Positions 3,732 through 61,395 of a stretch of 64,000 nucleotides of DNA are shown piece after piece. The translations under genes and the position numbers were made by a program. The notes beneath the pieces are model-generated. The model saw only the letters and a list, made by a program, of their open reading frames with translations. It did no database searches and had not been told where the DNA came from. This stretch comes from Candidatus Saccharimonadota bacterium (lineage in GTDB: Bacteria; Patescibacteriota; Saccharimonadia; Saccharimonadales; JACDBH01). Positions within the stretch are counted from its first letter, which is position 1. Every line of letters begins with the position of its first letter. Location: the NCBI GenBank assembly GCA_028289135.1, contig JAQGGW010000005.1:139219-203218 (forward strand), in the 5' to 3' direction.

Positions 3732-3753
3732 TCATATATACTGTTTAGTACTA

Positions 3754-3918
3754 TGAACCCATTTCATATCTTATCCCTGTTCTGCGGTCAAAACTGGCGG
3801 AAAGCTAATAACTTTTTGCTTCGCACCATATCTAAAGATATGCCTTGTTGCAAGAAAGTCATTATCTTCCTAGCCAGTTTTACCCTCGAACTTCAGAGAA
3901 AGGTATGAAATGGGTTCA
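3754..3918. repeat. 165-nt whole-spacer imperfect palindrome (copy 1)
   Basis: Perfect 15-bp terminal inverted repeat TGAACCCATTTCATA (3754-3768) / TATGAAATGGGTTCA (3904-3918). Inner arms AAAACTGGC (3790-3798) / GCCAGTTTT (3873-3881). Apex CATATCT..AGATATG (3827-3842) lies at the geometric centre. The 3' arm covers the recG ATG. Confidence 0.8.
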
Positions 3919-5955
3919 ATGGAACTAACAGGGGGTCTGACTGGTTTAAAAGGCGTGGGGCCAAGCGTTGCGGCGCTTTTTAAGGGCATTGGCATTTCGA
4001 CAATTGCCGAGCTGCTGGATTACTTTCCGCGTACGTATAATGACTATTCCGAAATCCAGACGATTTCGAAGATCAAACCCGGGATGGTTACCGTTGAGGT
4101 CGAGATTAAACAGTCCACAGGGCGCTATGTCCGCCGCGGCATGCATATCACCGAAGCAGTTGCTTCGGACGCTACAGGCAGCGTGCGTTTGCTGTGGTTT
4201 AACCAGCCCTATAGAGCCGCAAGCATTAAAACAGGCCAAAAATACTTTGTTACCGGCAAGCTGGAGCTTAAGGCCCAGCGCTTTAGTATTACAAACCCAA
4301 GTATGGAACAATCAAGCGATTTTCCGCTTCACACGGCACGCATTGTTCCGGTTTATCGTGAAAGCAAGGGCATAACTTCAACACTTCTGCGGCGGGTTTT
4401 ATACCAAGTGATCAAGTCCGCTTATCTATTGCCCGAACCTTTGCCAGAAGAAATCCGACGTAAATATAAATTGTTAACTTACGGCGCTGCAATTAGCGAA
4501 CTGCATTTTCCAACTTCGCGCGAAAGCTTTGCGGCTGCACGGCGGACGATTGGTTTTATAGAAGTTTTTGAGCTGATGCTGGCGGCATCATTAAACAAAG
4601 CCCAGAACCAAAGCGAACCGGCTCCATCAATCCCTTTTAAAGAAAAACTGGCCCAGAAGTTTGTAAAGTCTTTGCCGTTTACCTTAACCAACGCCCAAAG
4701 AGTTGCCGCATGGCAGATTTACCAAGATATTGTCTTCCCGGTACCTATGAACAGGCTTTTGGAAGGCGATGTTGGCTCCGGCAAAACCGTGGTGGCGGGG
4801 ATGGCCGGTCTAATGGCTATGGAGGCCGGATACCAAGTTGCATTAATGGCGCCGACTGAACTTTTGGCGCGGCAGCATGCCGAAACTTTAACCGATTTGT
4901 TTAAGGCGACTGGGCATGATGAGGTCGTGAGCCTACTTGTCGGAAGTTTAAAACCGGCCCAAAAGAAGATAGCCCAGGAACGCATTGCTAGCGGGCATAT
5001 CAAGTTTATTGTTGGAACGCAGGCTTTGCTGCAAGAAAAAGTTGTCATGCAAAACTTGGGGCTGTTGATTGTGGACGAACAGCACCGTTTTGGCGTTGAC
5101 CAGCGTAAAAAGTTGCTAAAAAGTTCGGGGTATATGCCGCATGTGCTCAGCATGACGGCCACCCCAATTCCGCGCTCTTTAGCATTGACGCTGTACGGTG
5201 AGCTGGATATTTCGCTTTTGGATGTTATGCCTATGGGCCGCAAGCCGATTATTACCGAAATTGTATCGCCGAACAGCCGAGAACCGCTTTATAAAAAAAT
5301 CGACGACGAAATTACGCAGGGACGTCAGGTTTACATAGTCTGCCCAGTCATTAAGGAAGGTTCTGGCCTAAAAGCGCCAAGCGCCGAGCAAACATATGAA
5401 AAATTGCGTAAAACCACCTTTAAACATCGCCAGCTGAGGCTTTTGCATGGCAAAATGAAAGACGATGAAAAATCCGCTGTTATGGAAGAGTTCGCAGCCG
5501 GGAAAATAGACATCTTGGTGGCAACAACCGTAATTGAAGTTGGTATCAGCGTCGCTAATGCCAGCGTGATGGTCATAGAGGGCGCTGACAGGTTCGGTCT
5601 TGCCCAAATGCACCAGCTCCGCGGCCGTGTGGGACGGAGTACCGATCAGGGCTACTGTTTTATTGTGCCAAGTGATAGCAAAGCCCCCAGCCCTAGGTTG
5701 CGGGCACTGAGCCAGTCTACAGATGGATTTAAGTTGGCAGAACTTGATCTAGAGCTACGCGGACCAGGAGCTATTTATGGCACGCTGCAGCACGGTGAGC
5801 TTGACCTGCGGATAGCCAAGCTCAGCGATGCCAAACTGCTGGCCGAAAGCCGCAAAGCGGTAAATGACTTTATTAAGGCAAAAATTAAATTGAGCGATTA
5901 CCCCGAACTAAAACGTCGTGTGCGTGCCGCCCAAGCCGTCGTTACCCTGAATTAG
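3910..5955 (+). CDS. recG: ATP-dependent DNA helicase RecG
   Basis: 681 aa. Walker A GDVGSGKT, DEQHRFG, TATPIPR, QLRGRVGR. SD GAAAGG 6 nt upstream. Confidence 0.93.
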   Translation: MGSMELTGGLTGLKGVGPSVAALFKGIGISTIAELLDYFPRTYNDYSEIQTISKIKPGMVTVEVEIKQSTGRYVRRGMHITEAVASDATGSVRLLWFNQPYRAASIKTGQKYFVTGKLELKAQRFSITNPSMEQSSDFPLHTARIVPVYRESKGITSTLLRRVLYQVIKSAYLLPEPLPEEIRRKYKLLTYGAAISELHFPTSRESFAAARRTIGFIEVFELMLAASLNKAQNQSEPAPSIPFKEKLAQKFVKSLPFTLTNAQRVAAWQIYQDIVFPVPMNRLLEGDVGSGKTVVAGMAGLMAMEAGYQVALMAPTELLARQHAETLTDLFKATGHDEVVSLLVGSLKPAQKKIAQERIASGHIKFIVGTQALLQEKVVMQNLGLLIVDEQHRFGVDQRKKLLKSSGYMPHVLSMTATPIPRSLALTLYGELDISLLDVMPMGRKPIITEIVSPNSREPLYKKIDDEITQGRQVYIVCPVIKEGSGLKAPSAEQTYEKLRKTTFKHRQLRLLHGKMKDDEKSAVMEEFAAGKIDILVATTVIEVGISVANASVMVIEGADRFGLAQMHQLRGRVGRSTDQGYCFIVPSDSKAPSPRLRALSQSTDGFKLAELDLELRGPGAIYGTLQHGELDLRIAKLSDAKLLAESRKAVNDFIKAKIKLSDYPELKRRVRAAQAVVTLN

Positions 5956-5978
5956 TTTGTTAGGGGTAAAGAAGACGA

Positions 5979-6143
5979 ACACATTCCACACTTGAGCTAG
6001 TTTCGGTACGGCTGCGCGGAACGCAAGTTAGCTGTACGGGATGGTACTGCTAACGCGTACCGCAAGCGGCCAAGCCGAAAATAGCCAAGAGTTCAGCCAC
6101 GGCTCGGCTTTGCCGAGACCTGGATGAACGGTGTGGGATGTGT
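5979..6143. repeat. 165-nt whole-spacer imperfect palindrome (copy 2, with 3' side branch)
   Basis: 13-bp terminal helix ACACATTCCACAC (5979-5991) / GTGTGGGATGTGT (6131-6143), one G-U. Inner helix CTTGAGCTAGTTTCGG / CCGAAAATAGCCAAG. Apex GTAC-GGGATG-GTAC (6034-6047). Side hairpin CTCGG-CTTTG-CCGAG. Core CCGAAAATAGCCA at 6075-6087. Confidence 0.75.
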
Positions 6144-6157
6144 GTATACTAGGTGTA

Positions 6158-6973
6158 ATGTATTCTGGACTAACCCTAACTCGTTACTCTGGGCGGCTAT
6201 TTGGCGGCCATCAACATGTTGACCGTGTGGCACGCAGGCATTTGGCCGAGCTTATGCACCCAAAATCGGCCTTTCCAGGGATCCGTTCAATTTTGCATTT
6301 TGAAGGCAAAAACGGTCCGGACGGCATAAAGCGCAAAAGCCCCTCCCGCAATGAGCCGTGGCATTTTTTTGAACCGCTAAAAGGCGATACGACGGCATTT
6401 ATGAAACTCATAGAGCAACATTACAAGCAACTCGTTAAAGAGCTTAAGGCAAAGAACAAAGAACGGTCGGCATTTGAAGCCGCTTGGTTTGCACATACCA
6501 TTGTTGACGGCTTAACTCCGGCGCACCATTATCCGTACGAAGAAAAAATGGCTGAGCTTCGGGGAGGAGCCGCGAAAGATGACCGTACGACCGTTATGCA
6601 AAAGTGGATTTTTAAAGGAGATACCAAATCAAAAACACTGCAAAATGTGTTTAAAACCTGGGGTCCGCGCGGGCTGTATATTGCCCACGGTATGTTTGAG
6701 CTGGGGTTTGGCTTTATTATTAAACCTCTTCGCTTTCCAGATGCGCGCCCACGCCCAAGCGACATACTTTTGGCTAAAAAATTAGGTTATCACGAATATT
6801 ATTTGCGCCAGGCGCGTAAAGTTGCCCGCATGCAACTGTTTGATGCTTACATTAAAGATGGCTGGACGAGCAAGATCAGCCGTCAGGTACGCGAAGAGCT
6901 AGCGCCGACTATCGTAAAGACAATCACAATAATGTGGTACATAGCTGCCGAAGAAGCGGGAGTAGATAAGTGA
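6158..6973 (+). CDS. hypothetical protein (His-rich motif HTIVDGLTPAHH)
   Basis: ORF is open from GTG 6131. ATG 6158 lies 7 nt after TATACT (6145-6150), so the start is uncertain. No confident family call. Confidence 0.6.
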   Translation: MYSGLTLTRYSGRLFGGHQHVDRVARRHLAELMHPKSAFPGIRSILHFEGKNGPDGIKRKSPSRNEPWHFFEPLKGDTTAFMKLIEQHYKQLVKELKAKNKERSAFEAAWFAHTIVDGLTPAHHYPYEEKMAELRGGAAKDDRTTVMQKWIFKGDTKSKTLQNVFKTWGPRGLYIAHGMFELGFGFIIKPLRFPDARPRPSDILLAKKLGYHEYYLRQARKVARMQLFDAYIKDGWTSKISRQVREELAPTIVKTITIMWYIAAEEAGVDK

Positions 6974-28602: not shown

Positions 28603-28824
28603 ATGGGTGAAAGATTTGCCACTGATTTCGATATTGAAACTGGAGTTAACCGTAAAGAAACACCTATTATACAACCTGTAACTGATGGATTATTTGATCA
28701 AGCTGCATACGTTGAGGCTCTTGAACAAGGTAAAGCTCCAATAACAGCACGTCGTGCTGGTATCAATGCAGGGAGTGTCACAATGGCAGCGATTGTGACA
28801 GTAGAAGGAGTTCAAAATGCCTAG
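28603..28824 (+). CDS. hypothetical acidic micro-protein (73 aa) inserted between rpsL and rpsG
   Basis: ATG 2 nt after the rpsL stop. Its last codons contain the rpsG SD (GAAGGAG), and its TAG lies inside rpsG codons 2-3 (ATGCCTAG). AGA/TTA/ATA codons. Confidence 0.5.
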   Translation: MGERFATDFDIETGVNRKETPIIQPVTDGLFDQAAYVEALEQGKAPITARRAGINAGSVTMAAIVTVEGVQNA

Positions 28825-29936: not shown

Positions 29937-30389
29937 ATGCCCGGTTACACAGAAAAGGGGCCAAGCTCAATGTCATCAGGCAATCAAGTTCAGTCAGTTT
30001 TGCCCATGAACATTGAAAAATGGAACCTAACTATTTCGAATCATATTGGACATCCCTCTAATGATGGCTACCCCGCGCTTGGAGTGCAGGGTGAGATTGT
30101 TTGGTTTGACTATACAGGTATGCAAATACCTCCTCTTTATAACCCTTATACTACTCAAGCCTCTGCACCCACAACAGCTAACAGGCTTTCACGCCGTGTT
30201 GAATCTAGTTCGTCCCGAGTAACGGCACTAGACTTAAGCCCACAACAAATTTGTGAGCAAGCGTGTTCGAGCAACCGAAGAAGTGGTTATCGTTGCGACG
30301 GCGCACAACTTGACAAGGACTTTGGAGATTTTAAGTGTTCAGTCACGGGTGATTATGAATCTTTGCCGGTAAGTTTAAGATTTAGGTAA
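29937..30389 (+). CDS. hypothetical protein (150 aa, ORFan)
   Basis: SD AAAGGA 8 nt upstream. First of three ORFs separated by 1 nt each. Confidence 0.5.
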   Translation: MPGYTEKGPSSMSSGNQVQSVLPMNIEKWNLTISNHIGHPSNDGYPALGVQGEIVWFDYTGMQIPPLYNPYTTQASAPTTANRLSRRVESSSSRVTALDLSPQQICEQACSSNRRSGYRCDGAQLDKDFGDFKCSVTGDYESLPVSLRFR

Positions 30390-30390
30390 T

Positions 30391-30879
30391 ATGGTAGATC
30401 CTGAAATTACCGGAGCTGTAGAGCCTTGGCAGGAATCTGCTGACCGCGATTATCCTGGATATGATGGTGGTTTCGTAGGCCATGAAGCTATAAAAAATTA
30501 TTATAACGCGTTAGCTTTGGACATCGTGACAGCAAATATCAAAAACTATTTTCAGGTAACTGGCAGTTATGCTGAAGCTAACGGAGTGGTCACTCACGAA
30601 GATTTAGCAGCAGGCTATGCGGCTCTGATTGTTTCTATCGCTGAAAGTGCTGCCCTGAGCGCACAAGCGGAAGATACTAAAAATGGTGGTAATGCGCGTT
30701 TGCGCCTTATGATTGATATGAAGCAAGATTTAATAGATGCTGAAGCAAAGAAGAAGGCAGCAGCGGCCAAAGCGGACGAACTAAAAGAAGCAATACGAAG
30801 GATTAATGAAGACAGCATATTGCGACAAGCCGCAGTCATAACAGCGAGCCGTGCCGAAATAGTGGAGGTAACAGAATAA
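30391..30879 (+). CDS. hypothetical protein (162 aa, ORFan; Ala/Lys-rich helical C-terminus)
   Basis: Starts 1 nt after the previous stop. DAEAKKKAAAAKADELKEAIRR segment. Confidence 0.5.
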   Translation: MVDPEITGAVEPWQESADRDYPGYDGGFVGHEAIKNYYNALALDIVTANIKNYFQVTGSYAEANGVVTHEDLAAGYAALIVSIAESAALSAQAEDTKNGGNARLRLMIDMKQDLIDAEAKKKAAAAKADELKEAIRRINEDSILRQAAVITASRAEIVEVTE

Positions 30880-30880
30880 T

Positions 30881-31255
30881 ATGGCAGGCCAAGAAACATC
30901 TATTAGAGCTGGAGAGGAATCAGCAGCTGAACAACCGCGATACGCTCGAGTTTTATCTGAAGTTGAAAGAATCCAAGGAGAAGAGGCTAAGCGTATCATA
31001 AGTCTTTCAAAACTTGCTTGGGTATTTGAATTAACACAAAAGCAAGTAAATTTGCATTCTCATTTAGAGGTTGCCGCCGAACGGCTAGCTAGAGGTATCG
31101 CTTCAATTCCAGTATTACCTGAGATATTGGCAGTATTCCAAGAAAATTACACGACTCCGCTTGTTGATGTTCTTGGAGCTGATAGATTCGCCACCATAGT
31201 TGCAGAATGTTCAGATCAAACTAACATTGTTCAATCACAGCCTGAGCTTGCGTAA
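30881..31255 (+). CDS. hypothetical protein (124 aa, ORFan)
   Basis: Starts 1 nt after the previous stop. Its 3' end overlaps the -35 of the fusA promoter. Confidence 0.5.
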   Translation: MAGQETSIRAGEESAAEQPRYARVLSEVERIQGEEAKRIISLSKLAWVFELTQKQVNLHSHLEVAAERLARGIASIPVLPEILAVFQENYTTPLVDVLGADRFATIVAECSDQTNIVQSQPELA

Positions 31256-33664: not shown

Positions 33665-34264
33665 ATGCCTACTCATCCCGAACTTGTAGCACAAACACTT
33701 TTGACACTTGAGGCACATCGCCAGGCTCCCCATATAATTGATGATGCCTATGAAGATGGCATTATTGATGATGCTCATCATCTAGTAATTACTTCTAAAG
33801 GCAACTCGCAAACTGCAGTAGTGACACCGATGTATAGGGGCTTCGTGTATGGTTCAAGCCTGCTCGAACGATTTGATATGGCGGCATTATGTAATCGAGT
33901 TTTTGTCGAGGCGCGTATTAAAGTGGCTTCAAATGATCGTAAACAACTTGAAACAGCCAACGTAACGCTTAGATATGCTTTTGCACCAAAATTCCTACAA
34001 CCAAATAAGGTTCTAGAAACCCAGGCTCGCTACCCATTAGATCCAGAGGCCGAATATGGCACTATGGAAAGAGTTATTGCTGCAATTGGCGAAGTAGGTG
34101 TTGAAGGGGCAACAGTTCCAAATACTAGTGGTTATGTAGAGGTACCTGATGACCCGTACAGAAAAAATAACGACCGCTGGGTTGTAACTGATCACATGAG
34201 CGGTTTAGTAGTTGCTGAATGTATCCATGAAGCAGTGAGCCGGTTGCATTTTACGGAGCTTTAA
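33665..34264 (+). CDS. hypothetical protein (199 aa, ORFan)
   Basis: SD GGAG ~8 nt upstream. No recognisable motif. Sits between fusA and tuf. Confidence 0.5.
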   Translation: MPTHPELVAQTLLTLEAHRQAPHIIDDAYEDGIIDDAHHLVITSKGNSQTAVVTPMYRGFVYGSSLLERFDMAALCNRVFVEARIKVASNDRKQLETANVTLRYAFAPKFLQPNKVLETQARYPLDPEAEYGTMERVIAAIGEVGVEGATVPNTSGYVEVPDDPYRKNNDRWVVTDHMSGLVVAECIHEAVSRLHFTEL

Positions 34265-34403: not shown

Positions 34404-35588
34404 ATGGCAGAGAATTTTGATCGAACAAAGCCTCACGTTAACGTAGGTACTATGGGTCACGTTGACCACGGTAAAACAACTCTAACAGCTGCAATTACTA
34501 CTGTTTTGGCAAAGCGTATGCCAAGCAAAGTTAACCAACCAATTGCTTACGACCAGATCGACAACGCACCTGAAGAAAAAGCTCGTGGTATCACGATTGC
34601 TACTTCCCACCAGGAATACGAATCAGAAAAGCGCCACTACGCGCACGTCGACATGCCAGGTCACGCCGACTACGTTAAGAACATGATTACCGGTGCCGCT
34701 CAGATCGACGGCGCAATCTTGGTTGTTGCTGCAAACGACGGTCCACTTCCACAGACTCGTGAGCACGTATTGCTCGCCCGCCAGGTCGGTGTTCCAAGCA
34801 TCCTCGTATTCATGAACAAGATGGACCTTGCTGATCCAGAACTCATCGAACTTGTTGAGATGGACATCCGCGAACTCTTGGCCAAGAATGGTTATGACGA
34901 AAACGCTCCAATCATCAAGGGCTCAGCTACAAAAGCTATGGCCGGCGACAAAGAAGCTGAAGACGCTATTATGGAACTCGTTAAGGCTATGGACGACTTC
35001 GTTCCAGAACCAAAGCGCGAACTCGATAAGCCATTCTTGATGAGCATCGAAGACGTATTCTCGATCAAGGGTCGTGGTACTGTTGCAACCGGTCGTATCG
35101 AAACTGGTATCGTTAAGGTTAACGAAGAAGTTGAAATCGTCGGTCTTAAGGACACTCGTAAGAGCGTTGTTACCGGTGTTGAAATGTTCAAGAAGAACCT
35201 CGACCAAGGTCAGGCTGGCGACAACGTCGGTATCCTCCTCCGCGGTATCGAGCGTGAAGATATCGAGCGCGGCCAAGTTTTGGCTAAGCCAGGTACTATC
35301 ACTCCTCACACCGAATTTGACGCTGAAGTTTATATCTTGACCAAAGAAGAAGGCGGCCGTCACACTCCTTTCTTCAAGGGCTACAAGCCACAGTTTTACT
35401 TCCGCACAACGGACGTAACTGGTGAAGTTGAACTCCCAGCTGACAAAGAAATGGTTATGCCTGGTGACACTATCACTTTCAAAGTGAAGCTTCTCCAGCC
35501 AATCGCCATGGAACAAGGTCTCCGCTTCGCTATCCGCGAAGGTGGCCGTACTGTTGGTGCTGGTGTTGTTACTAAGATTACTAAGTAG
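34404..35588 (+). CDS. tuf: elongation factor Tu
   Basis: 394 aa from [34 protein letters not shown] 8 nt upstream. The longer ORF-track start (34311) is not supported. Confidence 0.97.
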
Positions 35589-35718
35589 GTTCTCGCCCAT
35601 TTATCAGGGTACATTGCAGGCTAAAACCTGCGACAGAAAAAGGAGCAGTACGTTTGTACAGCTCCTTTTTCGTGCTCGGCCTTAGCTCTGCACTGCACTC
35701 CTGAAAATGACCGAGAAC
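35589..35718. repeat. 130-nt whole-spacer imperfect palindrome (copy A) directly after tuf
   Basis: Outer arms GTTCTCGCCCATTT (35589-35602) / AAATGACCGAGAAC (35705-35718). The 5' half and the reverse complement of the 3' half align along the whole length. Apex is the terminator hairpin. Homologous to copy B. Confidence 0.75.
35637..35670 (+). terminator. intrinsic (bidirectional-looking) terminator of tuf
   Basis: AAAAAGGAGCAGTAC-GTTT-GTACAGCTCCTTTTT, with an A-run and a T-run flanking the stem. Confidence 0.8.
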
Positions 35719-35870
35719 GGCTCAACTACGCTTCTATGCACGGCAAGAAACGAAAAACTGCATCCAAATGCATCGGCCAGTGACATGTTTGAATTGTTCC
35801 AGGAAATGAGATTTTGTTATTTTAGTCAAAACTATGCTAAAGTAGGTTTAATTAAATGAGGTTAATTGAG

Positions 35871-36215
35871 ATGGCGGAATTTTGTCCTGGATGCGATAGA
35901 GCGGGAATGGTTGTAGGTGATGTAGCTATAAGTATAAAAAAAGACGAACTTAGAAGTCCTTTAACAGATCTAGCTATAACTTTTACAGACGAAGATGGTT
36001 TTTTGCAACGCGGTTTTTTTGGTAGAGTTGTAGACCAAGAAGCAGACCTGGATACCAGCCTACTTGGCGAACGTCTTCTCAGCCGTATAGATCGCTGTAA
36101 AAGCCCAATGAGAAATGGTACATGCCCAGCCTTTAATCATGAGGTGGTTGAACAGTTAATACGATCTCAAGTAAGCCAGGAAGCAATAACTGAGCCTGAC
36201 CAGCCAGGAATTTAG
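35871..36215 (+). CDS. hypothetical protein with two Cys pairs (possible zinc-ribbon-like)
   Basis: MAEFCPGCDRAG...RCKSPMRNGTCPAF. ATG 35871 has GAGG 9 nt upstream; ATG 35856 is also possible. Confidence 0.45.
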   Translation: MAEFCPGCDRAGMVVGDVAISIKKDELRSPLTDLAITFTDEDGFLQRGFFGRVVDQEADLDTSLLGERLLSRIDRCKSPMRNGTCPAFNHEVVEQLIRSQVSQEAITEPDQPGI

Positions 36216-36295
36216 AAAAGCAAAAATACCATCGTGTAAAGAAGCTCACTGACTTATCTAGATAGACATTCATAATAAGTATCTTAGGAGTGCTT

Positions 36296-36628
36296 ATGTC
36301 TGTAGAGTTTAAGGGGCCTGTTATACCTGTTAGAATTGATGGCGAAAATGCTTCGCTACGTATTGTGCGTGATATGTCGTATAACATCGAAGCCGCCAGC
36401 GTGCTGTCTAACCCCGATGCAAATCCACCTTATGTCCAGCTAACACTGATATCTCCTCCAGGACCGCATTATAAAGAAGTTTGTGCAGATAAAATTACAG
36501 GTGATCCTGAGCCAAACCGTGCTCGCCTTATGTTTAACGAGCCATTTGGCGTTGATAAACTTATAGCTAACGCAATGAAAAGAGTAAGCAAGTCCAGGCA
36601 CCCAGCAGGAAGAGGAAATGCGAATTAA
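36296..36628 (+). CDS. hypothetical protein (110 aa, ORFan)
   Basis: SD GGAG 5 nt upstream of ATG 36296. No recognisable motif. Confidence 0.5.
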   Translation: MSVEFKGPVIPVRIDGENASLRIVRDMSYNIEAASVLSNPDANPPYVQLTLISPPGPHYKEVCADKITGDPEPNRARLMFNEPFGVDKLIANAMKRVSKSRHPAGRGNAN

Positions 36629-36687
36629 TTAAATTGCTTGACAGTAGGAATATAATTAAAGCATAAGTATTAATAAGGAACACAAAA

Positions 36688-36918
36688 ATGAAAAATGGAT
36701 TTGAGGATTCGGTAGCTCCAGTAGCTTATGGAGCTGATTTCGCTGGGCGAGTTGCTGTTGCAAGAGTTAATATGGATCAAGTATTAGAAACTCATCCTAA
36801 ACCAGATGTAAGATCTGTTGCAGCTCATGCGGGCAAAGTAATATTTCGAGAAATTGTATTTGCAGGTGCATGGTTAAACGCTGAAATTCATGGCGTAGAT
36901 CTTAGCCAAGTTGGTTAG
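36688..36918 (+). CDS. hypothetical protein (76 aa, ORFan)
   Basis: SD AAGGAA 8 nt upstream. No recognisable motif. Confidence 0.45.
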   Translation: MKNGFEDSVAPVAYGADFAGRVAVARVNMDQVLETHPKPDVRSVAAHAGKVIFREIVFAGAWLNAEIHGVDLSQVG

Positions 36919-37450: not shown

Positions 37451-37789
37451 ATGATTCACTTTCATGCTAATTATTTCGAAGGCACGACACAGCTCGGCCC
37501 TCATGTTACTCGTACTTTTGTTATTAACGAGGCTGGCTTCAGCGTGCCTGGTGCAATAACCGCATTTGAGGAATTAGAGTTAGCACGTGTCATTACATTC
37601 GCGCCTCATGTACATTTCGACACAAATGTTGAGCATCCAAGTATTCTTGTCCGCAATTCCGTGAAGGCCGGGAAACATATTGCTAAAGTCTTACGGCTAA
37701 GCGATTGGGGGGTTGGTAACTTCTCGAATGTATTCAACACAGATGCACTAGATTTTTGGCGTCCACAACAAGCTGACGATGATCTCTAA
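37451..37789 (+). CDS. doubtful hypothetical protein (112 aa)
   Basis: The ATG abuts the T-run of the rpsJ terminator and there is no SD or promoter. No motif recognised. Confidence 0.3.
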   Translation: MIHFHANYFEGTTQLGPHVTRTFVINEAGFSVPGAITAFEELELARVITFAPHVHFDTNVEHPSILVRNSVKAGKHIAKVLRLSDWGVGNFSNVFNTDALDFWRPQQADDDL

Positions 37790-37804
37790 GAGTGGTAAGT
37801 TAAC

Positions 37805-38158
37805 AAAAAAATAACCCCGGGCCTGATAAGCTTCGGGGTTATTTCGTATTCCGTCAGATGTATTCTTCGCGCATAGCCAGCTATTTCGAATTATTGCTGA
37901 GCAGGGTTATCAGCCCTCTTTTTCACGCTAGTCTGAGTCTCGCGCCGCACGGATACAATTTGCCGCTTAGCGATGGTGCCGGAGGTAAAAGGTTGGTCAA
38001 CTCTTGTCCATGGAACAAGCCGCCGCCTCTATTTTTACAACCTTCCTACAATAGCAGCTCACAACCAGTTTGGGCCGTACCCTCGCCGCATTGCTTATCA
38101 CCCTCCCAAAACAGAAGAATGCTCCTTAAACATACACTGGAACCATAACCAAAATCAA
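37805..38158 (-). ncRNA. candidate ~350-nt structured non-coding RNA, unclassified
   Basis: No credible ORF on either strand. Minus-strand TTGACC (38192-38187), 16-18 nt, then TATATAAA (38170-38163). Minus-strand terminator AACCCCG...CGGGGTT (37840-37813) plus T7. The transcript ends pair: 38114-38142 with 37849-37868 (4+4+7 bp). Confidence 0.45.
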
Positions 38159-38209
38159 CTATTTTATATATGAAAAAACTTACAGCGGTCAAAATGGTAT
38201 ATTAAAGTC

Positions 38210-38683
38210 ATGAATAAAGTTGTTGTGGCCGCAGAAGCTTTGGACCTTAGGCGGGGAATTGATTATATTGGTATTTCGGCTAATTTTGTCATTCACGATG
38301 GCAAAGGCAATATTTTATTACAAAAACGGAGCCAGAACTGCCGTGATGAACAGGGCAACTGGGACATTGGCGGCGGGGCTTTAGAATTTGGCGAAACTCT
38401 AGTAGAAGGCGTACGGCGCGAAGTTAAAGAAGAACTAATGACCGAAGCATTGGAAATAAAACTTCTAAAAGCCTACGAAGCCATCCGTGACAACAACGGT
38501 ACGCCTACGCACTGGATGGCGTTTACCCACGCCGTGCTGGTTGATCCTAAATCTATAAAAATTGGCGAACCACACAAGATTGATGAAATTGGCTGGTTTA
38601 CATCCGCGAACTTACCGAGTCCGCTGCACAGCCAGTTTTATAAGTCTTTTGATATTGCCCGCGAGCTCGGAATTGTGCATTAA
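38210..38683 (+). CDS. NUDIX hydrolase
   Basis: 157 aa. Nudix box GGGALEFGETLVEGVRREVKEELM. Extended -10 TGGTATATT (38195-38203) lies 6 nt before the ATG. Confidence 0.88.
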   Translation: MNKVVVAAEALDLRRGIDYIGISANFVIHDGKGNILLQKRSQNCRDEQGNWDIGGGALEFGETLVEGVRREVKEELMTEALEIKLLKAYEAIRDNNGTPTHWMAFTHAVLVDPKSIKIGEPHKIDEIGWFTSANLPSPLHSQFYKSFDIARELGIVH

Positions 38684-38738
38684 TCCAACTGTGGCATATC
38701 TAACAGCTTATGCTAAAGGGTTTTGATAACTTTATTAG

Positions 38739-39035
38739 GTGGAGTTTCCCCCATACGAAGCAGGTGAAGACGAACTTCTAACGGCCGCCAGAGGTGCTGT
38801 ACCTGAACTTTGCGGTGGATGTGAAGATATTAATGAGTTGGCATTTAGTTTATATAAACATGCTGCATATGAACGTGATTTTTTTAGACGTGATAGGCGT
38901 TCCAGATATCCTGATACTTTACGGATGCAACCTCCAAATCCAGAGCGCCTAGCCAGACACATATCCCTTGTTATTGTGGCAAAATGTTTATCACAGTGTC
39001 CATACGGCGTCCCTGTGCGAATAAGAACTTCTTAG
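38739..39035 (+). CDS. hypothetical protein with CGGC and CLSQC pairs (98 aa)
   Basis: GTG start without a convincing SD. Two Cys pairs. Confidence 0.3.
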   Translation: MEFPPYEAGEDELLTAARGAVPELCGGCEDINELAFSLYKHAAYERDFFRRDRRSRYPDTLRMQPPNPERLARHISLVIVAKCLSQCPYGVPVRIRTS

Positions 39036-39050
39036 TGCTACACTTAATTT

Positions 39051-39944
39051 ATGAAATTTGGCGCTACTTTTTCATATAAATATGCCCTGGAAATGAGCGT
39101 TGACCCCAAGGAGTGTCTAAAAGCGGCACTGGATGATCTGGGTGTAAGGAGATTGCGCCTTATGAGCTACTGGGATCTCCACGAACCCAAACAAGGCTCC
39201 TACGACTTCACAGAGCTCGACTGGCAGGTTGATATGGCCGAGCAGTCTAATTGTGCTGTTTTGCTATGCCTTGGCCTCCGGCAGCCCCGTTGGCCCGAGA
39301 GCCATTGGCCGGCTTGGGCAAAAGTGTTACCGGATGCAGAGTGGCAAAAGGCGCTGGACGACTACATTACAGTGGTGGTTAACAGATATAAAGGCCGGAA
39401 ATGTATCTTAAGCTATGAGTTAGAAAACGAAGCACTGCTAAAAGCCTTTGGACTAGATGGTAACTATGACCGTAACAGATTAAAACGTGAGTTTAAACTG
39501 GTTAAAACATTGGATCCAAGCCGGATAGTCATAATGAGCACCAGCGACTCCGGCGGTTTCCCATTATTTGGCCCAAAACCAGATATGTACTCCTACACAA
39601 TCTACCGTTACTTCTTTAGGCGCGGCAAGTACCGCCACTCTGTCCGCCCAGCTTGGACATACCACCTGCGGGCACAAATTATCTATCTGTTTAAGCGCCG
39701 TAAATCTTTCATCCATGAGCTCCAAGCTGAACCGTGGGGTCCAGAAGGCACTTCAAAGTTAACTGTCGAAGAGCAGTTTAAGAGTATGAACAGGGAAAGA
39801 GTCCAGGAAGCTGTGGCATACGTGCGCCGTACGCAACTGCTTCCAGCTGACCTTTGGGGCTTGGAGTGGTGGTACTGGCTAAAAACGGCTCAAGATATGC
39901 CGGAAATATGGAATGACCTAAAACCTATATTCGCTGAGGAATAA
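39051..39944 (+). CDS. glycoside hydrolase, clan GH-A TIM-barrel-like (family unassigned)
   Basis: 297 aa. SYELENE (acid/base-type NE) and IHELQAEPWG (nucleophile-type E) spaced as in clan-A enzymes. Confidence 0.6.
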   Translation: MKFGATFSYKYALEMSVDPKECLKAALDDLGVRRLRLMSYWDLHEPKQGSYDFTELDWQVDMAEQSNCAVLLCLGLRQPRWPESHWPAWAKVLPDAEWQKALDDYITVVVNRYKGRKCILSYELENEALLKAFGLDGNYDRNRLKREFKLVKTLDPSRIVIMSTSDSGGFPLFGPKPDMYSYTIYRYFFRRGKYRHSVRPAWTYHLRAQIIYLFKRRKSFIHELQAEPWGPEGTSKLTVEEQFKSMNRERVQEAVAYVRRTQLLPADLWGLEWWYWLKTAQDMPEIWNDLKPIFAEE

Positions 39945-39949
39945 CAGTT

Positions 39950-40495
39950 CTACTCTCCAAATAAACTGGTGGTGGTTGCCATACCAACAGTAACCGTTGC
40001 TAACATCTGTAGTGGGTGCTTTTTGCCATCCTGGTTGCCTACGCGTATAAATCTATCAAAAAATGCCGCTCGCGCACCCCAGTAAGAGGTAAATCTTGTG
40101 TCCACGTGCGCTGCTCTGCGTGGATCTACTTTTGCACTTCTAGCTGCCGCACCTAGAGCGTTTAGTGAAGTTAAAAACCCGCCGTATTCGTTGGGAGCAT
40201 ATACGGGAGGGTAGCCAAGCTGCGCCTGGACCATTTCAACCAAAGTAGACGAAATTCCACAGGCATCCGCCGGGAGGTCTTGGTGGTTGTCGTTTATAAT
40301 CGCGGTTTTGATCCCAACTTCGGCCAATTCCTCAAGCAATGTCTGTGCATGCTCATGTACATCATAAGTGTTACTACCATGAGCTAGCATCAAACTACCA
40401 AGTCCAAAGGTAACCAGGCCAATACCGCCTTGCTCAAACCCTTTTGCGTTAAGTTTGCTTAAGTCGACGCCTACTTCTATTCCAGTTCTTAACAT
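39950..40495 (-). CDS. hypothetical protein (181 aa)
   Basis: Only sizeable minus-strand ORF inside the r-protein region that does not overlap a plus-strand gene. No motif recognised. Confidence 0.5.
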   Translation of the reverse strand: MLRTGIEVGVDLSKLNAKGFEQGGIGLVTFGLGSLMLAHGSNTYDVHEHAQTLLEELAEVGIKTAIINDNHQDLPADACGISSTLVEMVQAQLGYPPVYAPNEYGGFLTSLNALGAAARSAKVDPRRAAHVDTRFTSYWGARAAFFDRFIRVGNQDGKKHPLQMLATVTVGMATTTSLFGE

Positions 40496-42042: not shown

Positions 42043-42422
42043 TGAAAGATCTCATGTTAATTCCTAGAATCTCCGAAAAGGCATATGCCATGAGCCAGCG
42101 CGACAACATTAAGACCTATGTCTTTGAAGTCCCAACCGGTTCAAACAAGCATTCTGTTGCCCGCGCCGTGACCATGCAGTTTGACGTTGTTGTTACCAGT
42201 GTCCGCACAACTACTGCTAAGGGCAAGGTTAAGCAAAGTTACCGCAAGGGCGGCCGCCCAATTACCGGAACCCGCAGCGATGTTAAAAAGGCATATGTAA
42301 CACTCCGTGAAGGCGATGTTTTGCCATTATTCATAGAAGAGCAGCAAGAAGAAGAAAAGCAGCTTAAGGCTGACCAAAAAGCTGCTAAAGAAGCCAAAAA
42401 GGCTAAGAAGGAGACCAAGTAA
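42042..42422 (+). CDS. rplW: 50S ribosomal protein L23 (Lys/Glu-rich C-terminal extension)
   Basis: 126 aa. L23 core plus tail EEQQEEEKQLKADQKAAKEAKKAKKETK. Confidence 0.93.
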   Translation: MKDLMLIPRISEKAYAMSQRDNIKTYVFEVPTGSNKHSVARAVTMQFDVVVTSVRTTTAKGKVKQSYRKGGRPITGTRSDVKKAYVTLREGDVLPLFIEEQQEEEKQLKADQKAAKEAKKAKKETK

Positions 42423-42679
42423 TGGCTATTCATAACCAAGACCCTTTTGTCTTACATATTGACGATGTTCTTGCACATAATTCTATCGCAACTGGCATAA
42501 AAGACGCTACGGGATTAGATACGGTTTTTGTACCAGCAAATCCTAGCAATACACCTAAAGAAAATGCTATGTTTGCTGGAAAAGCTGCTCTAGCTAGTTC
42601 AATTAATAATGGTGGTTTAGTAAGAGCTGCAGAAGCTATTATTGAAGAACGTGGTGGTTTATTTGGGGAGGCAATCTAA
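42422..42679 (+). CDS. hypothetical acidic micro-protein (85 aa) inserted between rplW and rplB
   Basis: TAATG overlaps at both ends. Its first 10 nt (ATGGCTATTC) are identical to the first 10 nt of rplB. Carries the rplB SD (GGGGAGG). TTA/AGA/ATA codons. Confidence 0.5.
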   Translation: MAIHNQDPFVLHIDDVLAHNSIATGIKDATGLDTVFVPANPSNTPKENAMFAGKAALASSINNGGLVRAAEAIIEERGGLFGEAI

Positions 42680-43535: not shown

Positions 43536-43832
43536 ATGATGTTCCCTAATACTTTAGTAGAAAAAGAAATGAACAGATTTACAGAAAGAGTTGTATCGTA
43601 CGCTAATGGATCTGATCCAAGAACTCGTGATGGTATGCTTTCTGTTGTTGCTGAGGAAATTGCTATAAGTGCTGTTGACAGTCCTTTGGCCCATCCAATA
43701 GCGTGGAAAAAAGATGCCTACGATGCTATCGGTGGTTATAACCGAATAGCGGCACCGGTTATTGAGAACGCTGTTGACTTTGTATTAAAAGAAATTGGAA
43801 GAACAGCAAGCTTAGGAGGCCGATATGTCTAG
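43536..43832 (+). CDS. hypothetical micro-protein (98 aa) inserted between rplB and rpsS
   Basis: ATG 2 nt after the rplB stop. Its 3' end supplies AGGAGG for rpsS, and its TAG lies within rpsS codons 2-3 (ATGTCTAG). Several AGA codons. Confidence 0.5.
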
Positions 43833-51643: not shown

Positions 51644-51865
51644 ATGGCCAAGAACAAGGAAGTCATCGAACTAGCCGGTACCATCACCGAGACACTACCG
51701 GGCACCCAGTTCCGTGTTGAACTCGAGAATGGCCATCAAATCATTGCACACGTTGCAGGTAAGATGCGAAAGCACTTTATCCGTATCGTGCCAGGAGACA
51801 GCGTGACGGTAGAATTGACACCTTACGATCTCACCAAAGGTCGTATAACCTACCGCAAATCTTAG
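51644..51865 (+). CDS. infA: translation initiation factor IF-1
   Basis: 73 aa from [16 protein letters not shown]... S1-like fold pattern. Confidence 0.95.
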
Positions 51866-51869
51866 CTTT

Positions 51870-51978
51870 CGTAGCTTGCACATTTCAGGCCAAAATCTGC
51901 GTCAAAAAGTCTCAATGTACTTCTTTGTACATCTCAACTTTTGTGCTCGATTATGACTCTGAACTGCGCTAAGCTACG
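51870..51978. repeat. 109-nt whole-spacer imperfect palindrome (copy B) directly after infA
   Basis: 8-bp outer helix CGTAGCTT (51870-51877) / AAGCTACG (51971-51978). Apex ATGTAC-TTCTTT-GTACAT with A-/T-run flanks. Aligns with copy A over ~150 nt (CATTTCAGGCCAAAATCTGCG vs CATTGCAGGCTAAAACCTGCG, and so on). Confidence 0.7.
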
Positions 51979-52120
51979 CAACCTAAGATGGTTGCACGAC
52001 AGAAACTTTACAAGAAAAGACATAGCAAGGTCCTAAAAGACCAGAGATGTAGTTTCTTGCAAAGAGTCTAATTATTAATAACTAACGCAGTGTGTCACCC
52101 CTTTGAAAGGAGCGATCCGT

Positions 52121-56031: not shown

Positions 56032-56757
56032 TTACGCAACAGCGTAGGATACGCGGATTACGCCGTCTTTTTCTTTAATTTTTCTAATTGTTTCCTGCCC
56101 AATATCTTTAAGCTCAACAACGTGAGTGCCGCCGCACGGGACTCCAAAATCACCATACAAAACCACACGGCTTGGCTTATCTTTCGGTAAGAATTCTGGT
56201 ACGTGGCGGCACAGAGCAGCCATTTCGTCTTTTGAGACAAAACGGATCTCAGTTTTTATGTTCCGTGCAAGTATCTCGTTAATCTTGCTGCCAATTTTAT
56301 CAGCAACAGCTTCTGGAGTTTCTTCACCTAGAGTGCCAGAATACTCAACGTATGGCCCTTCAGGGAAATGAAAGCCTTTGCCGGGCGTCCAGGTATAGCC
56401 AAGTTCGTTTATAGCCATATCTACAACATGCCCGCCGGAATGAAGCCGCGTATTTAACGCTCGGCGTTCTGCATCCACTTTGCAAGACACGTCCTCGCCC
56501 TGCATAAACCGGCCTTTCTCAAAGTGTCCAATATGCGAAACAATGCCTTCTCCAAAGCGTACTTCTTCAACCACAAAAGTGGCATTGTCGTTAGAAATTG
56601 TGCCGTTGTCATAGGGCTGTCCGCCGCCTTGCGGGTAAAAAACTGTTTGGTCGAGCGTAACGACAACATTGCCGTCTTTATCTTCAACATCCTCAACATA
56701 AGCACTGCACTCAAGCAGCTGCATATCGGTCATATAAAGTAATTTTGTCGGTTCCAT
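56032..56757 (-). CDS. alaX: alanyl-tRNA editing protein AlaX-like (Thr/Ala-tRNA synthetase second additional domain)
   Basis: Zinc motifs RLHSGGHVVD and PCGGTHV. Start taken at MEPTKLLYMTD (56757) rather than the ORF-track 56802. Confidence 0.8.
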   Translation of the reverse strand: MEPTKLLYMTDMQLLECSAYVEDVEDKDGNVVVTLDQTVFYPQGGGQPYDNGTISNDNATFVVEEVRFGEGIVSHIGHFEKGRFMQGEDVSCKVDAERRALNTRLHSGGHVVDMAINELGYTWTPGKGFHFPEGPYVEYSGTLGEETPEAVADKIGSKINEILARNIKTEIRFVSKDEMAALCRHVPEFLPKDKPSRVVLYGDFGVPCGGTHVVELKDIGQETIRKIKEKDGVIRVSYAVA

Positions 56758-56832
56758 TTTTATCCTTCTCGTTAGTCTTAGTAATATATTAACAAAAAAC
56801 ATCTATAAACATTTAAATTTGTATATTAATAT

Positions 56833-59335: not shown

Positions 59336-60364
59336 ATGAGTAAAGAAGTAATCTTGACTGGCATTAGGGCGAATAATGACCTGACTTTGGGCAACTATTT
59401 TGGGGCGATTTTGCCTATTGTGGACATGGCTAAGAAGCGGGCAAATGAATATCAAATTAACTTGTTTGTACCTGATTTGCATAGTTTTACGACGCCAATC
59501 GATCATAGCCAGCTGCAAGAACAAATCATGCACAATCTGCGTTTGTTTGTTGCGGCTGGCTTACCGCTTAACCACCCAGATGTGCACATTTATAGGCAGA
59601 GTTATATTCCTGCTCATAGTGAGCTTGCATGGATTCTGGATTGCTTTACCGGTTTTGGAGAAATGAGTCGGATGATTGAATTTAAAGATAAATCGGCAAA
59701 ACTAGGTGAAGAACGGGTTGGCGTGGGGCTTTTTAATTACCCTGTTCTGATGGCGGCCGACATACTGCTCTACAATGCAACATATATACCTGTCGGAGAC
59801 GACCAAACCCAGCATCTTGAGTTTACCCGGGACATCGCAGAGCGCTTAAATACACGTTTTGGCGACCTATTTTCCGTGCCGTATCAGGTAAAAAAACAGC
59901 ATGAATTCTTTGGCAACGACCAAGGCTTGCGCATTAAGGACCTTCAAGATCCAACCAAAAAGATGAGCAAAAGTGACGAAACTGGCAAAGGTGTCATTTT
60001 CTTAGGTGACACTCCAGAGGTGGCTGCCAAAAAGATTATGAGCGCTACAACGGACTCCCTGGGAGTAATTAAGTTTGACTGGGCAGAACAACCCGGCATA
60101 ACCAATCTGTTGCAACTTCTTGCGCTGGCTACAGAACGCCCTCAAACAGAGGTAAATAAGCAATGGGAAGGCAAAACAGCATATGGTGAGCTCAAGAAAG
60201 CCGTTGCTGAAGCCATTACGGGCTTTTTGCAGGGGTTGCAGGGGCAGTTGGTTCTTGTGGACGATTCTGCGCTGCTGGCCAAGCTCGGCGCATCTGAAAA
60301 AGCTATGAATGAAGTTGCTAACAAAACACTCTATAAAGTCCAAAAAGCCGTCGGACTGCGCTAG
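59336..60364 (+). CDS. trpS: tryptophanyl-tRNA synthetase
   Basis: 342 aa. HIGH-region variant TLGNYFGA, KMSKS present (KKMSKSD). Confidence 0.93.
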   Translation: MSKEVILTGIRANNDLTLGNYFGAILPIVDMAKKRANEYQINLFVPDLHSFTTPIDHSQLQEQIMHNLRLFVAAGLPLNHPDVHIYRQSYIPAHSELAWILDCFTGFGEMSRMIEFKDKSAKLGEERVGVGLFNYPVLMAADILLYNATYIPVGDDQTQHLEFTRDIAERLNTRFGDLFSVPYQVKKQHEFFGNDQGLRIKDLQDPTKKMSKSDETGKGVIFLGDTPEVAAKKIMSATTDSLGVIKFDWAEQPGITNLLQLLALATERPQTEVNKQWEGKTAYGELKKAVAEAITGFLQGLQGQLVLVDDSALLAKLGASEKAMNEVANKTLYKVQKAVGLR

Positions 60365-60526
60365 GGCTTTTCCCCTAAGTAAATTATGAGACATAAAATG
60401 AGATATTTTCGAGACAAAATAGTTAAGGTGCGACAAAAGGTAGTAGATGCTACATTGCGAAGCGGCTTAGCTGTTTTGTCCGAAAATAGCCATTTTAGGG
60501 CCACAATCTTGCTTGGGGAGAAGCCC
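60364..60526. repeat. 163-nt whole-spacer imperfect palindrome (copy 3)
   Basis: Outer helix GGGCTTTTCCCCTAAG (60364-60379) / CTTGGGGAGAAGCCC (60512-60526): 15 bp, one G-U, one bulge. Nested helices TAAAATG/CATTTTA, TATTTTCG/CGAAAATA and GACAAAATAGTTAAG/CTTAGCTGTTTTGTC. Core CCGAAAATAGCCA at 60480-60492. Confidence 0.8.
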
Positions 60527-60528
60527 TG

Positions 60529-61395
60529 ATGCCGCGGCAATGGATCACCGTCACCGAAGAACTGGTCGGTAAAAGAACAGATAAGCTGATTGCCGACTAT
60601 TTTCCTTCATACCCTCGCGCCGCGCTGCACAAACTATTTGAAAGCGGCGATATTGAGATGAATGAAAAACCTGTTAAGCCAGGAATAAAAGTCCGGCTGG
60701 GTGATAATCTTCGTATTGATCTTTCGCCGCTTGATATAACGATTGAGGATATCGAACTGCCTATTTTGTATGAAGATGATGACGTTTTGGTTGTAAACAA
60801 GCCGGCGGGTATAATCTCCCATGCGCGAGGCAAGTATTTTGATGAGCCGTCGGTGGCGTCTTTTGTCCGTCAAAAAGTTGCTTCTTTAACGGGTGAGCGG
60901 AGCGGGATTGTTCATCGCCTTGACCGTGCGACTAGCGGTGTTATGGTCTGTGCCAAAAACCCTGAAAGTTTGAGCTGGCTGCAGCAGCAGTTTAGCGGCC
61001 GTAAAGTCCAAAAGACTTATATGGCGATTGTCGTCGGCAGTATGCCTACCGAAGAAGGGAAGATCGATATGCCGATTGCGCGCAACCCGGCCAAACCGGT
61101 GACATTTCATGTTGACCCGGGAGGTAAAGATTCGGTCACGAACTTTAAGGTCGTTTCAAGCCACAAGAACTACACTTTGCTTGAACTCAAACCAGTTACA
61201 GGGCGCACTCACCAGCTGCGCGTGCATTTGAGCCATCTTAAACATCCAATTGTTGGGGATGACCTTTATAGCGGCGAACCGGCTGAACGGCTCATGCTGC
61301 ATGCTTATTCTTTAGTTATTACTTTGCCTTCAAAAGAAGTGGTAACATTTGAAGCGCCTATCCCTGAGGAATTTAAAAAGTACACGGACGCCTGA
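60529..61395 (+). CDS. rluD: RluA-family pseudouridine synthase (RluD-like, S4 domain plus catalytic domain)
   Basis: 288 aa. Catalytic HRLDRATSGV. N-terminal S4-like segment. Confidence 0.82.
   Translation: MPRQWITVTEELVGKRTDKLIADYFPSYPRAALHKLFESGDIEMNEKPVKPGIKVRLGDNLRIDLSPLDITIEDIELPILYEDDDVLVVNKPAGIISHARGKYFDEPSVASFVRQKVASLTGERSGIVHRLDRATSGVMVCAKNPESLSWLQQQFSGRKVQKTYMAIVVGSMPTEEGKIDMPIARNPAKPVTFHVDPGGKDSVTNFKVVSSHKNYTLLELKPVTGRTHQLRVHLSHLKHPIVGDDLYSGEPAERLMLHAYSLVITLPSKEVVTFEAPIPEEFKKYTDA

Follow-up and report, generated by a model that had tools for sequence, protein, structure and literature searches.

The window analyzed here is a 64-kb stretch of a Saccharibacteria (TM7, Patescibacteria) genome, and all within-genome copy counts given below refer to these 64 kb. 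Its G+C content is ~47%, its genes lie almost all on the plus strand, and the relatives of its TrpS, RecG and EF-Tu proteins are Saccharibacteria metagenome-assembled genomes (MAGs) throughout. Toward its 3' end, trpS and rluD are separated by a spacer of 164 nt that folds as a single long imperfect hairpin, which together with the adjoining stop codon bases constitutes the element referred to here as H5. The names that a first-pass annotation had given to both genes agree with the profile matches listed below, and the position of the rluD start codon follows from the list of open reading frames (ORFs), the profile match and comparison with the closest relative, L002.

59336-60364, plus strand: trpS ORF (TIGR00233, 5.9e-83)
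60362-60364, plus strand: trpS stop codon TAG; the H5 palindrome opens with its A and G
60363-60527, plus strand: H5, an imperfect palindromic element of 165 nt between trpS and rluD (fold z -9.2), missing in L002
60363-60377, plus strand: 5' terminal inverted repeat of H5, AGGGCTTTTCCCCTA, pairing with 60513-60527
60440-60453, plus strand: apical stem-loop of H5 in the computed fold, GTAG-TAGATG-CTAC
60480-60492, plus strand: the 13-mer CCGAAAATAGCCA, the same as 6075-6087 in a second hairpin (H2)
60513-60527, plus strand: 3' terminal inverted repeat of H5, TTGGGGAGAAGCCCT, containing GGAG
60529-60531, plus strand: rluD start codon
60529-61395, plus strand: rluD ORF (RluA-family pseudouridine synthase, 2.5e-75; best named equivalog RluD)

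The plus strand of H5 (folded as window positions 60360-60530) reaches -78.4 kcal/mol, compared with -38.9 +/- 4.3 kcal/mol for 200 dinucleotide shuffles of the same positions (z -9.2, 0 of 200 as good), and the minus strand reaches -60.6 kcal/mol (z -7.4). The first-pass annotation had described an outer helix of 15 bp followed by helices of 7, 8 and 15 bp, and the dot-bracket structure shows this layout, with an outer helix of ~14-15 bp. The hairpin it had placed at 60364-60526 thus exists, but its limits are better drawn at 60363-60527 (or at 60364-60525 if a TA target duplication is assumed). The outer helix extends from within the trpS stop codon to 60527/60528, a position 1-2 nt upstream of the rluD ATG (60529), and the GGAG of the 3' arm (60517-60520) lies 8 nt upstream of that codon. 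[quoted passage not shown] Six G-U pairs form on the plus strand and three on the minus strand. A terminator and promoter scan of 60200-60700 returned 0 terminator-like sites and no promoter excess; GATGCCG directly follows the stem on its 3' side, and no T-run follows the stem or the apex on the plus strand. When the whole window was searched against Rfam 15 (gathering score and E <= 5), no hairpin was matched and tRNA alone reached the gathering score, and in phage and plasmid collections H5 was unmatched except for one 47-nt chance match.

The comparison with relatives shows how this arrangement arose. In L002 (MAG GFS_5930), of which TrpS and RluD are 89% and 92% identical to those of the window, trpS and rluD overlap as TAATG, and the alignment of the two genomes contains a clean 165-nt gap at the H5 site: the empty site reads AGATAATGCC and the filled site of the window reads CGCT[AGGGC...GCCCT]GATGCC. 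In 24 of 35 related Saccharibacteria species the trpS-rluD spacer measures between -30 and +13 nt, and none of the longer spacers that were folded among these 35 relatives (~300 nt or less) forms a strong hairpin. Because the two genes overlap in L002 and overlap or nearly abut in those 24 relatives, H5 is a lineage-specific insertion. It supplies the AG (or the G) of the present trpS stop codon TAG.

We favor, with a probability of roughly 0.55, the view that a non-autonomous palindromic element of ~165 nt, similar in kind to the ERIC, Correia, RPE and QMITE repeats, has inserted as H5 into the stop/start overlap of trpS-rluD. Such an element would have landed in this lineage exactly at the overlapping stop/start junction (TAATG or TGATG). 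Because no terminator or promoter signal accompanies it, H5 is probably co-transcribed with trpS and rluD, and in the messenger it would zip into one helix that loops out the 165 nt and brings the trpS stop beside the rluD start at the helix base. The 5' end of H5 would complete the stop codon (T+AG), and a GGAG would be available in its 3' arm, 8 nt upstream of the ATG. To terminate on the UAG, a ribosome would have to melt the basal helix that hides the GGAG; opening of the helix would free this Shine-Dalgarno sequence, such that rluD translation would stay coupled to that of trpS, and the survival of coupling could explain why the insertion was tolerated in a genome with almost no spacers. 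This scheme would need no function of H5 beyond being tolerated, and H5 is not shown here to be a functional RNA.

H5 is not the only structure of this type in the window. A sliding fold over the whole 64 kb flagged five intergenic long single hairpins (H1-H5) and no others, which is a lower bound on their number (a self-BLAST hairpin finder was insensitive and overlooked H2). Together they occupy 843 nt, or 1.3% of the window. The other four are as follows.

3757-3915, plus strand: H1, a 159-nt hairpin in the gatD|recG spacer (fold z -7.1), ending 3 nt before the likely recG ATG (3919)
5959-6180 (core 5979-6143), plus strand: H2, a 222-nt hairpin after recG (-109.4 kcal/mol, z -8.8)
35589-35727, plus strand: H3, a hairpin that begins immediately downstream of the tuf stop, with an apex like a bidirectional intrinsic terminator
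51841-51998, plus strand: H4, a hairpin after infA, homologous to H3

Presence of a hairpin in one genome and its absence at the orthologous site in another, which is a second mark of MITEs, was found for H5, for H4 and at the H1 site. The gatD|recG spacer of relatives either measures 7-30 nt or carries different hairpins at other points; three different hairpins lie at three points in the window, L039 and L038, and L041 and L042 have none. L039 lacks both H2 and the orphan ORF that follows it, and its recG|rsmD spacer is ~15 nt long; in the window, the 3' arm of H2 holds a TATACT box and the ATG (6158) of that orphan ORF. H4 is missing in L070, L071 and L072, which encode an identical InfA, and the flanks of L070 and L071 are ~95% identical to those of the window; the site downstream of infA measures ~35 nt in L070/L071 versus ~210 nt in the window. 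In the lower stem of H4, the final ~26 nt of infA coding sequence are paired with a downstream stretch that is their reverse complement in diverged form, and two synonymous infA differences from L070 that fall in this stem are the pairing variants. Close relatives carry hairpins at still other junctions, namely after rpoC (L073), after rpsG (L075), before tuf (L080) and after hisS (L039). The sequences bordering H1 (ATGAA/ATGGA) were also inspected for a target duplication, and the H4 flanks show none.

Two side observations concern these same sites. The post-infA insertion exceeds H4: a further ~90 nt with a second, weaker hairpin (51985-52075) is also missing from L070 and L071, and the whole insert sits in the loop of a small ancestral hairpin, CTTTCA-TTAA-CTTGAAAG. 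The TATACT box (3741-3746 and 6145-6150 in the window, and upstream of recG in L038-L042) is conserved and lies 7-10 nt upstream of an ATG, which suggests leaderless-type promoters. It precedes recG in the relatives and the orphan ORF after H2; in the window, H1 lies between the box and the recG ATG (3919).

H3 and H4 belong to one recognizable sequence family. Their alignment covers ~95 apical nt at ~75% identity (Smith-Waterman score 34.5, no shuffle as good), and a four-member nhmmer profile that includes L076 finds homologues immediately after tuf in L076 (3.9e-25) and L105 (5.1e-20), with L076 still matched at 1.2e-5 by a profile built without it. A further copy follows rpsG in L075, so that the family has these members:

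35589-35727 and 51862-51990 of the window
L075:6306-6430
L076:11190-11313
L105:11191-11310

Within a subclade the post-tuf copy is conserved, those after infA and rpsG being secondary; this subfamily is dispersed, with presence/absence between close relatives. Double changes that keep the pair are seen at 22 of the 48 consensus pairs. It is overwhelmingly the strand antisense to the genes that carries the G-U pairs (25 G-U cells versus 3 A-C, in a count that ignores phylogeny), which is the opposite of what is expected under selection on the messenger, and the consensus folds as a single hairpin on the antisense strand (-44 kcal/mol) and as a weaker branched structure on the sense strand (-28 kcal/mol). 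The H3 apex consists of an A-tract, a stem and T5, and its outer 7-bp stem (GTTCTCG/CGAGAAC) is missing from the L076 homologue. A scan of IMG/VR with a 17-mer of the family gave 13 matches, none extending past the seed. As a separate observation, L075 carries an ordinary short intrinsic terminator after tuf (L075:11195-11235, AAAAGAGCCTCAGGAATGAGGCTCTTTTATTTTT), where the window, L076 and L105 instead carry the 130-nt hairpin, the apex of which has the same A-tract/T-tract frame as the L075 terminator. H5, H2 and H1 were not matched by the two-member H3/H4 profile, nor were any of 900 shuffles, and three- and four-member profiles of the family gave no match to them at E<=1.

Whether H5 is instead related to H1 and H2, as the first-pass annotation had proposed for all three, is a closer question. 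The 13-mer CCGAAAATAGCCA at 60480-60492 is indeed identical to 6075-6087; it occurs exactly twice in the window, at 6075 and 60480, both times on the plus strand (0.08 expected), and is therefore not a common word. The sequence TAGCCAGTTTTA lies at 3871, in H1. In H5 and H2, the 13-mer lies 30 and 31 nt past the 3' half of the apical stem and both apices follow the pattern GTAS-NNGATG-STAC (GTAC-GGGATG-GTAC at 6034-6047 in H2), and TAGCCA is found on the plus strand at +36.5, +41.5 and +40.5 nt from the apex of H1, H2 and H5, respectively. Among 112 hairpin-versus-hairpin local alignments, the best two were H1-H2(+) and H2-H5(+) (z 3.6 each), the former running end to end and including the termini ACCCATTTCATA and ACACATTCCACA. 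Against homology of the three stand the H1-H5 local alignments, which were not significant (z -1.1 and 0.9), and the flanks of the 13-mer in the H2-H5 pair, where the right side is no better than shuffles (p > 0.9) and the left is marginal (p 0.03-0.2). With each element in turn as query, nhmmer did not recover any other at E < 5; when H1, H2, H5 and three hairpins of relatives were run as single sequences against ~760 kb, nhmmer, like blastn with word size 9, gave self-matches only; and MAFFT with RNAalifold, applied to seven hairpins of both putative groups, produced no consensus structure. The covariance models R1 and R2, based on the H3 family, rank the five hairpins of the window top (15.1 and 15.5 bits for H5, 21.6 and 20.6 for H2, 10.2 and 16.0 for H1), but the unrelated long hairpins L039hp, L080hp and L041 also score 12-14 bits with R2, so these models cannot settle homology, and their preference for the G-U-rich strand is a scoring property, not independent evidence. 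Judged from these sequence likenesses, the common ancestry of H1, H2 and H5 is plausible, at roughly even odds.

The strand on which the hairpins fold best bears on what they could be for. Minimum free energies of the plus and minus strands are -60.8 and -67.9 kcal/mol for H1, -109.4 and -94.6 for H2, -65.4 and -78.7 for H3, -50.4 and -66.1 for H4, and -76.4 and -59.8 for H5, although the adjoining genes are all on the plus strand. The earlier proposal that T-G wobbles favor the RNA of the plus strand therefore holds for H5 and H2, whereas H1, H3 and H4 fold better on the minus strand. Since three of the five are better on the minus strand, pairing is not consistently optimized for the messenger, and a mixed orientation is what would be expected of inserted elements with an asymmetry of their own rather than of selection on the mRNA.

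The five hairpins also share a feature of position, in that all of them directly follow TAG stops (3729-3731, 5953-5955, 35586-35588, 51863-51865 and 60362-60364). The 64 genes of the window end in TAA 47 times, in TAG 11 times and in TGA 6 times, which gives a hypergeometric p of ~6e-5 for the association, or ~3e-4 when only genes followed by >= 74 nt are counted. In the relatives, the stop upstream of a hairpin is TAG in three cases (L038, L039, L105) and TAA in four (L073, L075, L076, L039:13294). The TAG at H5 was created by the insertion, given that TAA stands at the empty site; the one at H4 existed before the insertion. Readthrough or recoding of the TAG codons was considered and rejected: the reading frames that continue past the stops run for 2 to 26 or more codons and show no pattern.

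Several other explanations of H5 were weighed. It could be a selected cis-acting RNA, acting as an RNase III site, as a stability element that uncouples the two messages or through regulated sequestration of the rluD ribosome-binding site. RNase III could plausibly act on a helix as long as this one (~64 bp, few mismatches), and Correia elements are bound or cleaved by that enzyme (PMC2649163); in H5, moreover, the G-U pairs favor the transcribed strand by the energies given above, and the Shine-Dalgarno sequence and the stop codon both lie within the basal helix. However, H5 is missing in the closest relative and in the other relatives sampled and is thus not a conserved requirement, H1, H3 and H4 fold better on the non-transcribed strand, the G-U pairs of the H3 family are antisense (25 versus 3 A-C) and Rfam offers no match, so that we consider selection for an RNA function doubtful. 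An intrinsic terminator would have a counterpart in the A-tract/stem/U-tract likeness of the H3 apex, and palindromes can arise as chimeras in amplified DNA, which would make H5 an assembly artefact. The absence of terminator-like sites in 60200-60700 and of a T-run, with GATGCCG following the stem, rejects H5 as a Rho-independent terminator, and the genes it separates are coupled in relatives; as to an artefact, the imperfect arms, which do not copy the flanks, make this origin unlikely, and the identical sequence is present in Logan contig L001 (Logan assembly of SRR13312994). Taken together, a terminator or an artefact is hardly credible here.

It is also possible that the hairpins never moved as units but arose and grew at their present sites through replication template switching or fold-back priming, with one arm copied, in reverse complement, from the other arm or from the flank; stems are known to be generated and kept up by template switching (PMC8794818). 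Several features speak for such a process: in H4, the 3' arm is complementary, with divergence, to the final ~26 nt of infA, where two synonymous variants pair; H3 has an outer 7-bp stem not present in its L076 homologue; H2 and H1 have arms extending into the start region of the next gene; and most of the hairpins have a sequence of their own. These features of H1-H4 suggest that stems have been extended or repaired by arm-to-arm copying, as in template switching (PMC8794818). At H5, on the other hand, the empty site has no spacer and the arms resemble neither the trpS and rluD flanks nor other available sequence, so the 165 nt are not a local inverted copy and arm-to-arm copying is not their origin; and H3/H4 with the L075 copy show sequence traveling between loci. 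We therefore regard origin by template switching as unlikely, and the process may well extend and maintain the stems without being the origin of H5. Strand-specific recombination of single-stranded DNA, with hairpins that resemble integron attC sites, IS200/IS605 ends or REP/RAYT and are tied to gene-cassette insertion at junctions, would account for a structure that is conserved while its sequence is not, for the consistent better-folding strand within the H3 family, for the way in which H2, H3 and the L075 hairpin border, on the 5' side, blocks of orphan genes that vary from one relative to another, and for the lack of a clear target duplication. Yet the attC core sites (RYYYAAC 5', GTTRRRY 3') are not found in that order, being reversed in H2 (GTTAGGG 5', CCCTAAC 3') and absent from H5 (which ends in AGGGC.../...GCCCT), so that an attC site was rejected, as was, on its defining features, a REP; no integrase or HUH enzyme occurs among the window ORFs scanned, and H5 and H1 adjoin no inserted gene. 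This mechanism appears very unlikely for H5.

The view that H5 is a non-autonomous palindromic insertion has to accommodate a number of observations that weigh against it. Read against L002, the target site TA[GGGC...GCCC]TG gives at best an imperfect 2-nt duplication, or none. Neither the window nor ~850 kb of sequence from related Saccharibacteria yielded a second recognizable copy of H5, transposase or integrase domains are absent from the window ORFs scanned, and the hairpin copies diverge far more than members of a typical MITE family do. The lower stems of H4 and H2 are complementary to neighboring coding sequence, which a simple cut-and-paste element would not carry, the link of all five hairpins to TAG is without explanation, and the step of translational coupling is one that we purely infer. 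Alternatively, the clade could have a strand-specific process that creates, spreads and enlarges long hairpins exactly at stop-codon junctions, where looping-out would admit insertions, small orphan genes included, while coupling is kept. Fold-back or template-switch copying and single-stranded-DNA transposition would be candidates for it, and it could account for a 'good' strand that is set for each element regardless of gene direction, for arms that recruit neighboring coding ends and for the marked TAG link; we hold this reading to be improbable.

Other loci in the window also vary between relatives. Three orphan ORFs of 73, 85 and 98 aa (28603-28824, 42422-42679 and 43536-43832) lie between the ribosomal protein genes S12|S7, L23|L2 and L2|S19, respectively, with overlapping stops and starts; all three are missing from L073 and L075, and none of these inserts is a hairpin. 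A direct repeat of 12 nt, TAATGGCTATTC, borders the L23|L2 insert on both sides, and L105 has a 90-aa ORF between S12 and S7 too. The rpsG|fusA, fusA|tuf, tuf|rpsJ and rpsJ|rplC intervals (29937-31255, 33665-34264, 35856-36918 and 37451-40495) hold blocks of mostly family-less genes that are different in every relative examined, and one such block in L075 includes an ORF with a CdiA_C toxin domain. On the minus strand, the match of a 256-aa ORF (56032-56802) to the class II alanyl-tRNA synthetase core domain is confined to the C-terminal end of that domain (profile 469-552 of 552), and the ORF may be a fragment or an AlaX-like protein. Also on the minus strand, 4697-4974, inside the recG coding sequence, gives a weak Rfam match to Ysr141, a Yersinia sRNA (26.8 bits versus a gathering score of 196, E 0.0025), which is almost certainly due to chance.

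Saccharibacteria and other bacteria of the candidate phyla radiation are regarded as streamlined bacteria that have genomes of ~1 Mb, in which genes overlap and repeats are few. In the core housekeeping region studied here, ~1.3% of the sequence consists of long palindromic insertions that differ between close relatives, in ribosomal-protein and translation-factor operons as well. If they are mobile, they would represent a so far undescribed repeat class for the phylum, useful as strain markers and a source of assembly breaks; our literature searches returned nothing on palindromic or MITE repeats in Saccharibacteria or Patescibacteria. The geometry of H5, with the stop at one foot of the helix and the Shine-Dalgarno sequence and start at the other, offers a simple model for how a compact operon could survive an insertion. 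Elements of this kind are well known elsewhere, and the finding of H5 opens no long-standing question.

Among known systems, the closest kinds are ERIC, Correia, RPE and QMITE2, with SPRITE in addition for H3/H4 (PMC10969869, PMC2649163). The ERIC or IRU repeats of enterobacteria (~127 bp) are like the window hairpins in size, in imperfect palindromy of the whole element, in occurrence in both orientations, in location between or just after genes in transcription units and in presence/absence at orthologous sites. Their effects are exerted via the RNA hairpin, with copy-number variation and RNase E effects (PMC10969869). ERIC copies share a recognizable consensus, unlike the window hairpins, where only H3/H4 do so and H5 is without a clear relative, and the likeness is one of kind, with no claim to a relationship in sequence. 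Correia elements of Neisseria (CREE/NEMIS) resemble H5 in their size of 100-155 bp, terminal inverted repeats, co-transcription (probable for H5) and possible TA target, and their hairpin is bound or cut by RNase III (PMC2649163). In contrast to what is shown here, Correia elements exist in hundreds of almost identical copies with conserved terminal repeats of 26 bp, and they have an IHF site and a clearly duplicated TA.

RPE of Rickettsia and QMITE2 of Coxiella are palindromic elements of ~100-190 bp that occur, as here, in small reduced genomes as several divergent families. QMITE2 is found mainly in 3' untranslated regions, with a predicted stem-loop of very high stability in its transcript, and the transcripts of known palindromic MITEs in such regions form stable stem-loops (PMC10969869). 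Unlike H5, the RPE and QMITE families are defined by multi-copy consensus sequences, and RPEs often insert in frame inside genes, whereas the window elements sit at stop/start junctions. SPRITE, a dispersed repeat with a terminator-like core (PMC10969869), is similar to the A-tract/stem/T-tract apex of H3/H4, a likeness that excludes H5, which has no T-tract on the transcribed strand. The stems produced by template switching (PMC8794818) are like H4 and H2 in that the arms are reverse-complement copies of adjacent sequence, coding ends included, and like the H3 family in that many apparent double changes keep pairs; template switching copies local sequence, however, and H5 has no local template. 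What the window hairpins and the known palindromic repeats have in common is size, palindromy, an intergenic and, in the window, probably co-transcribed location, both orientations, and presence in one genome with absence from another.

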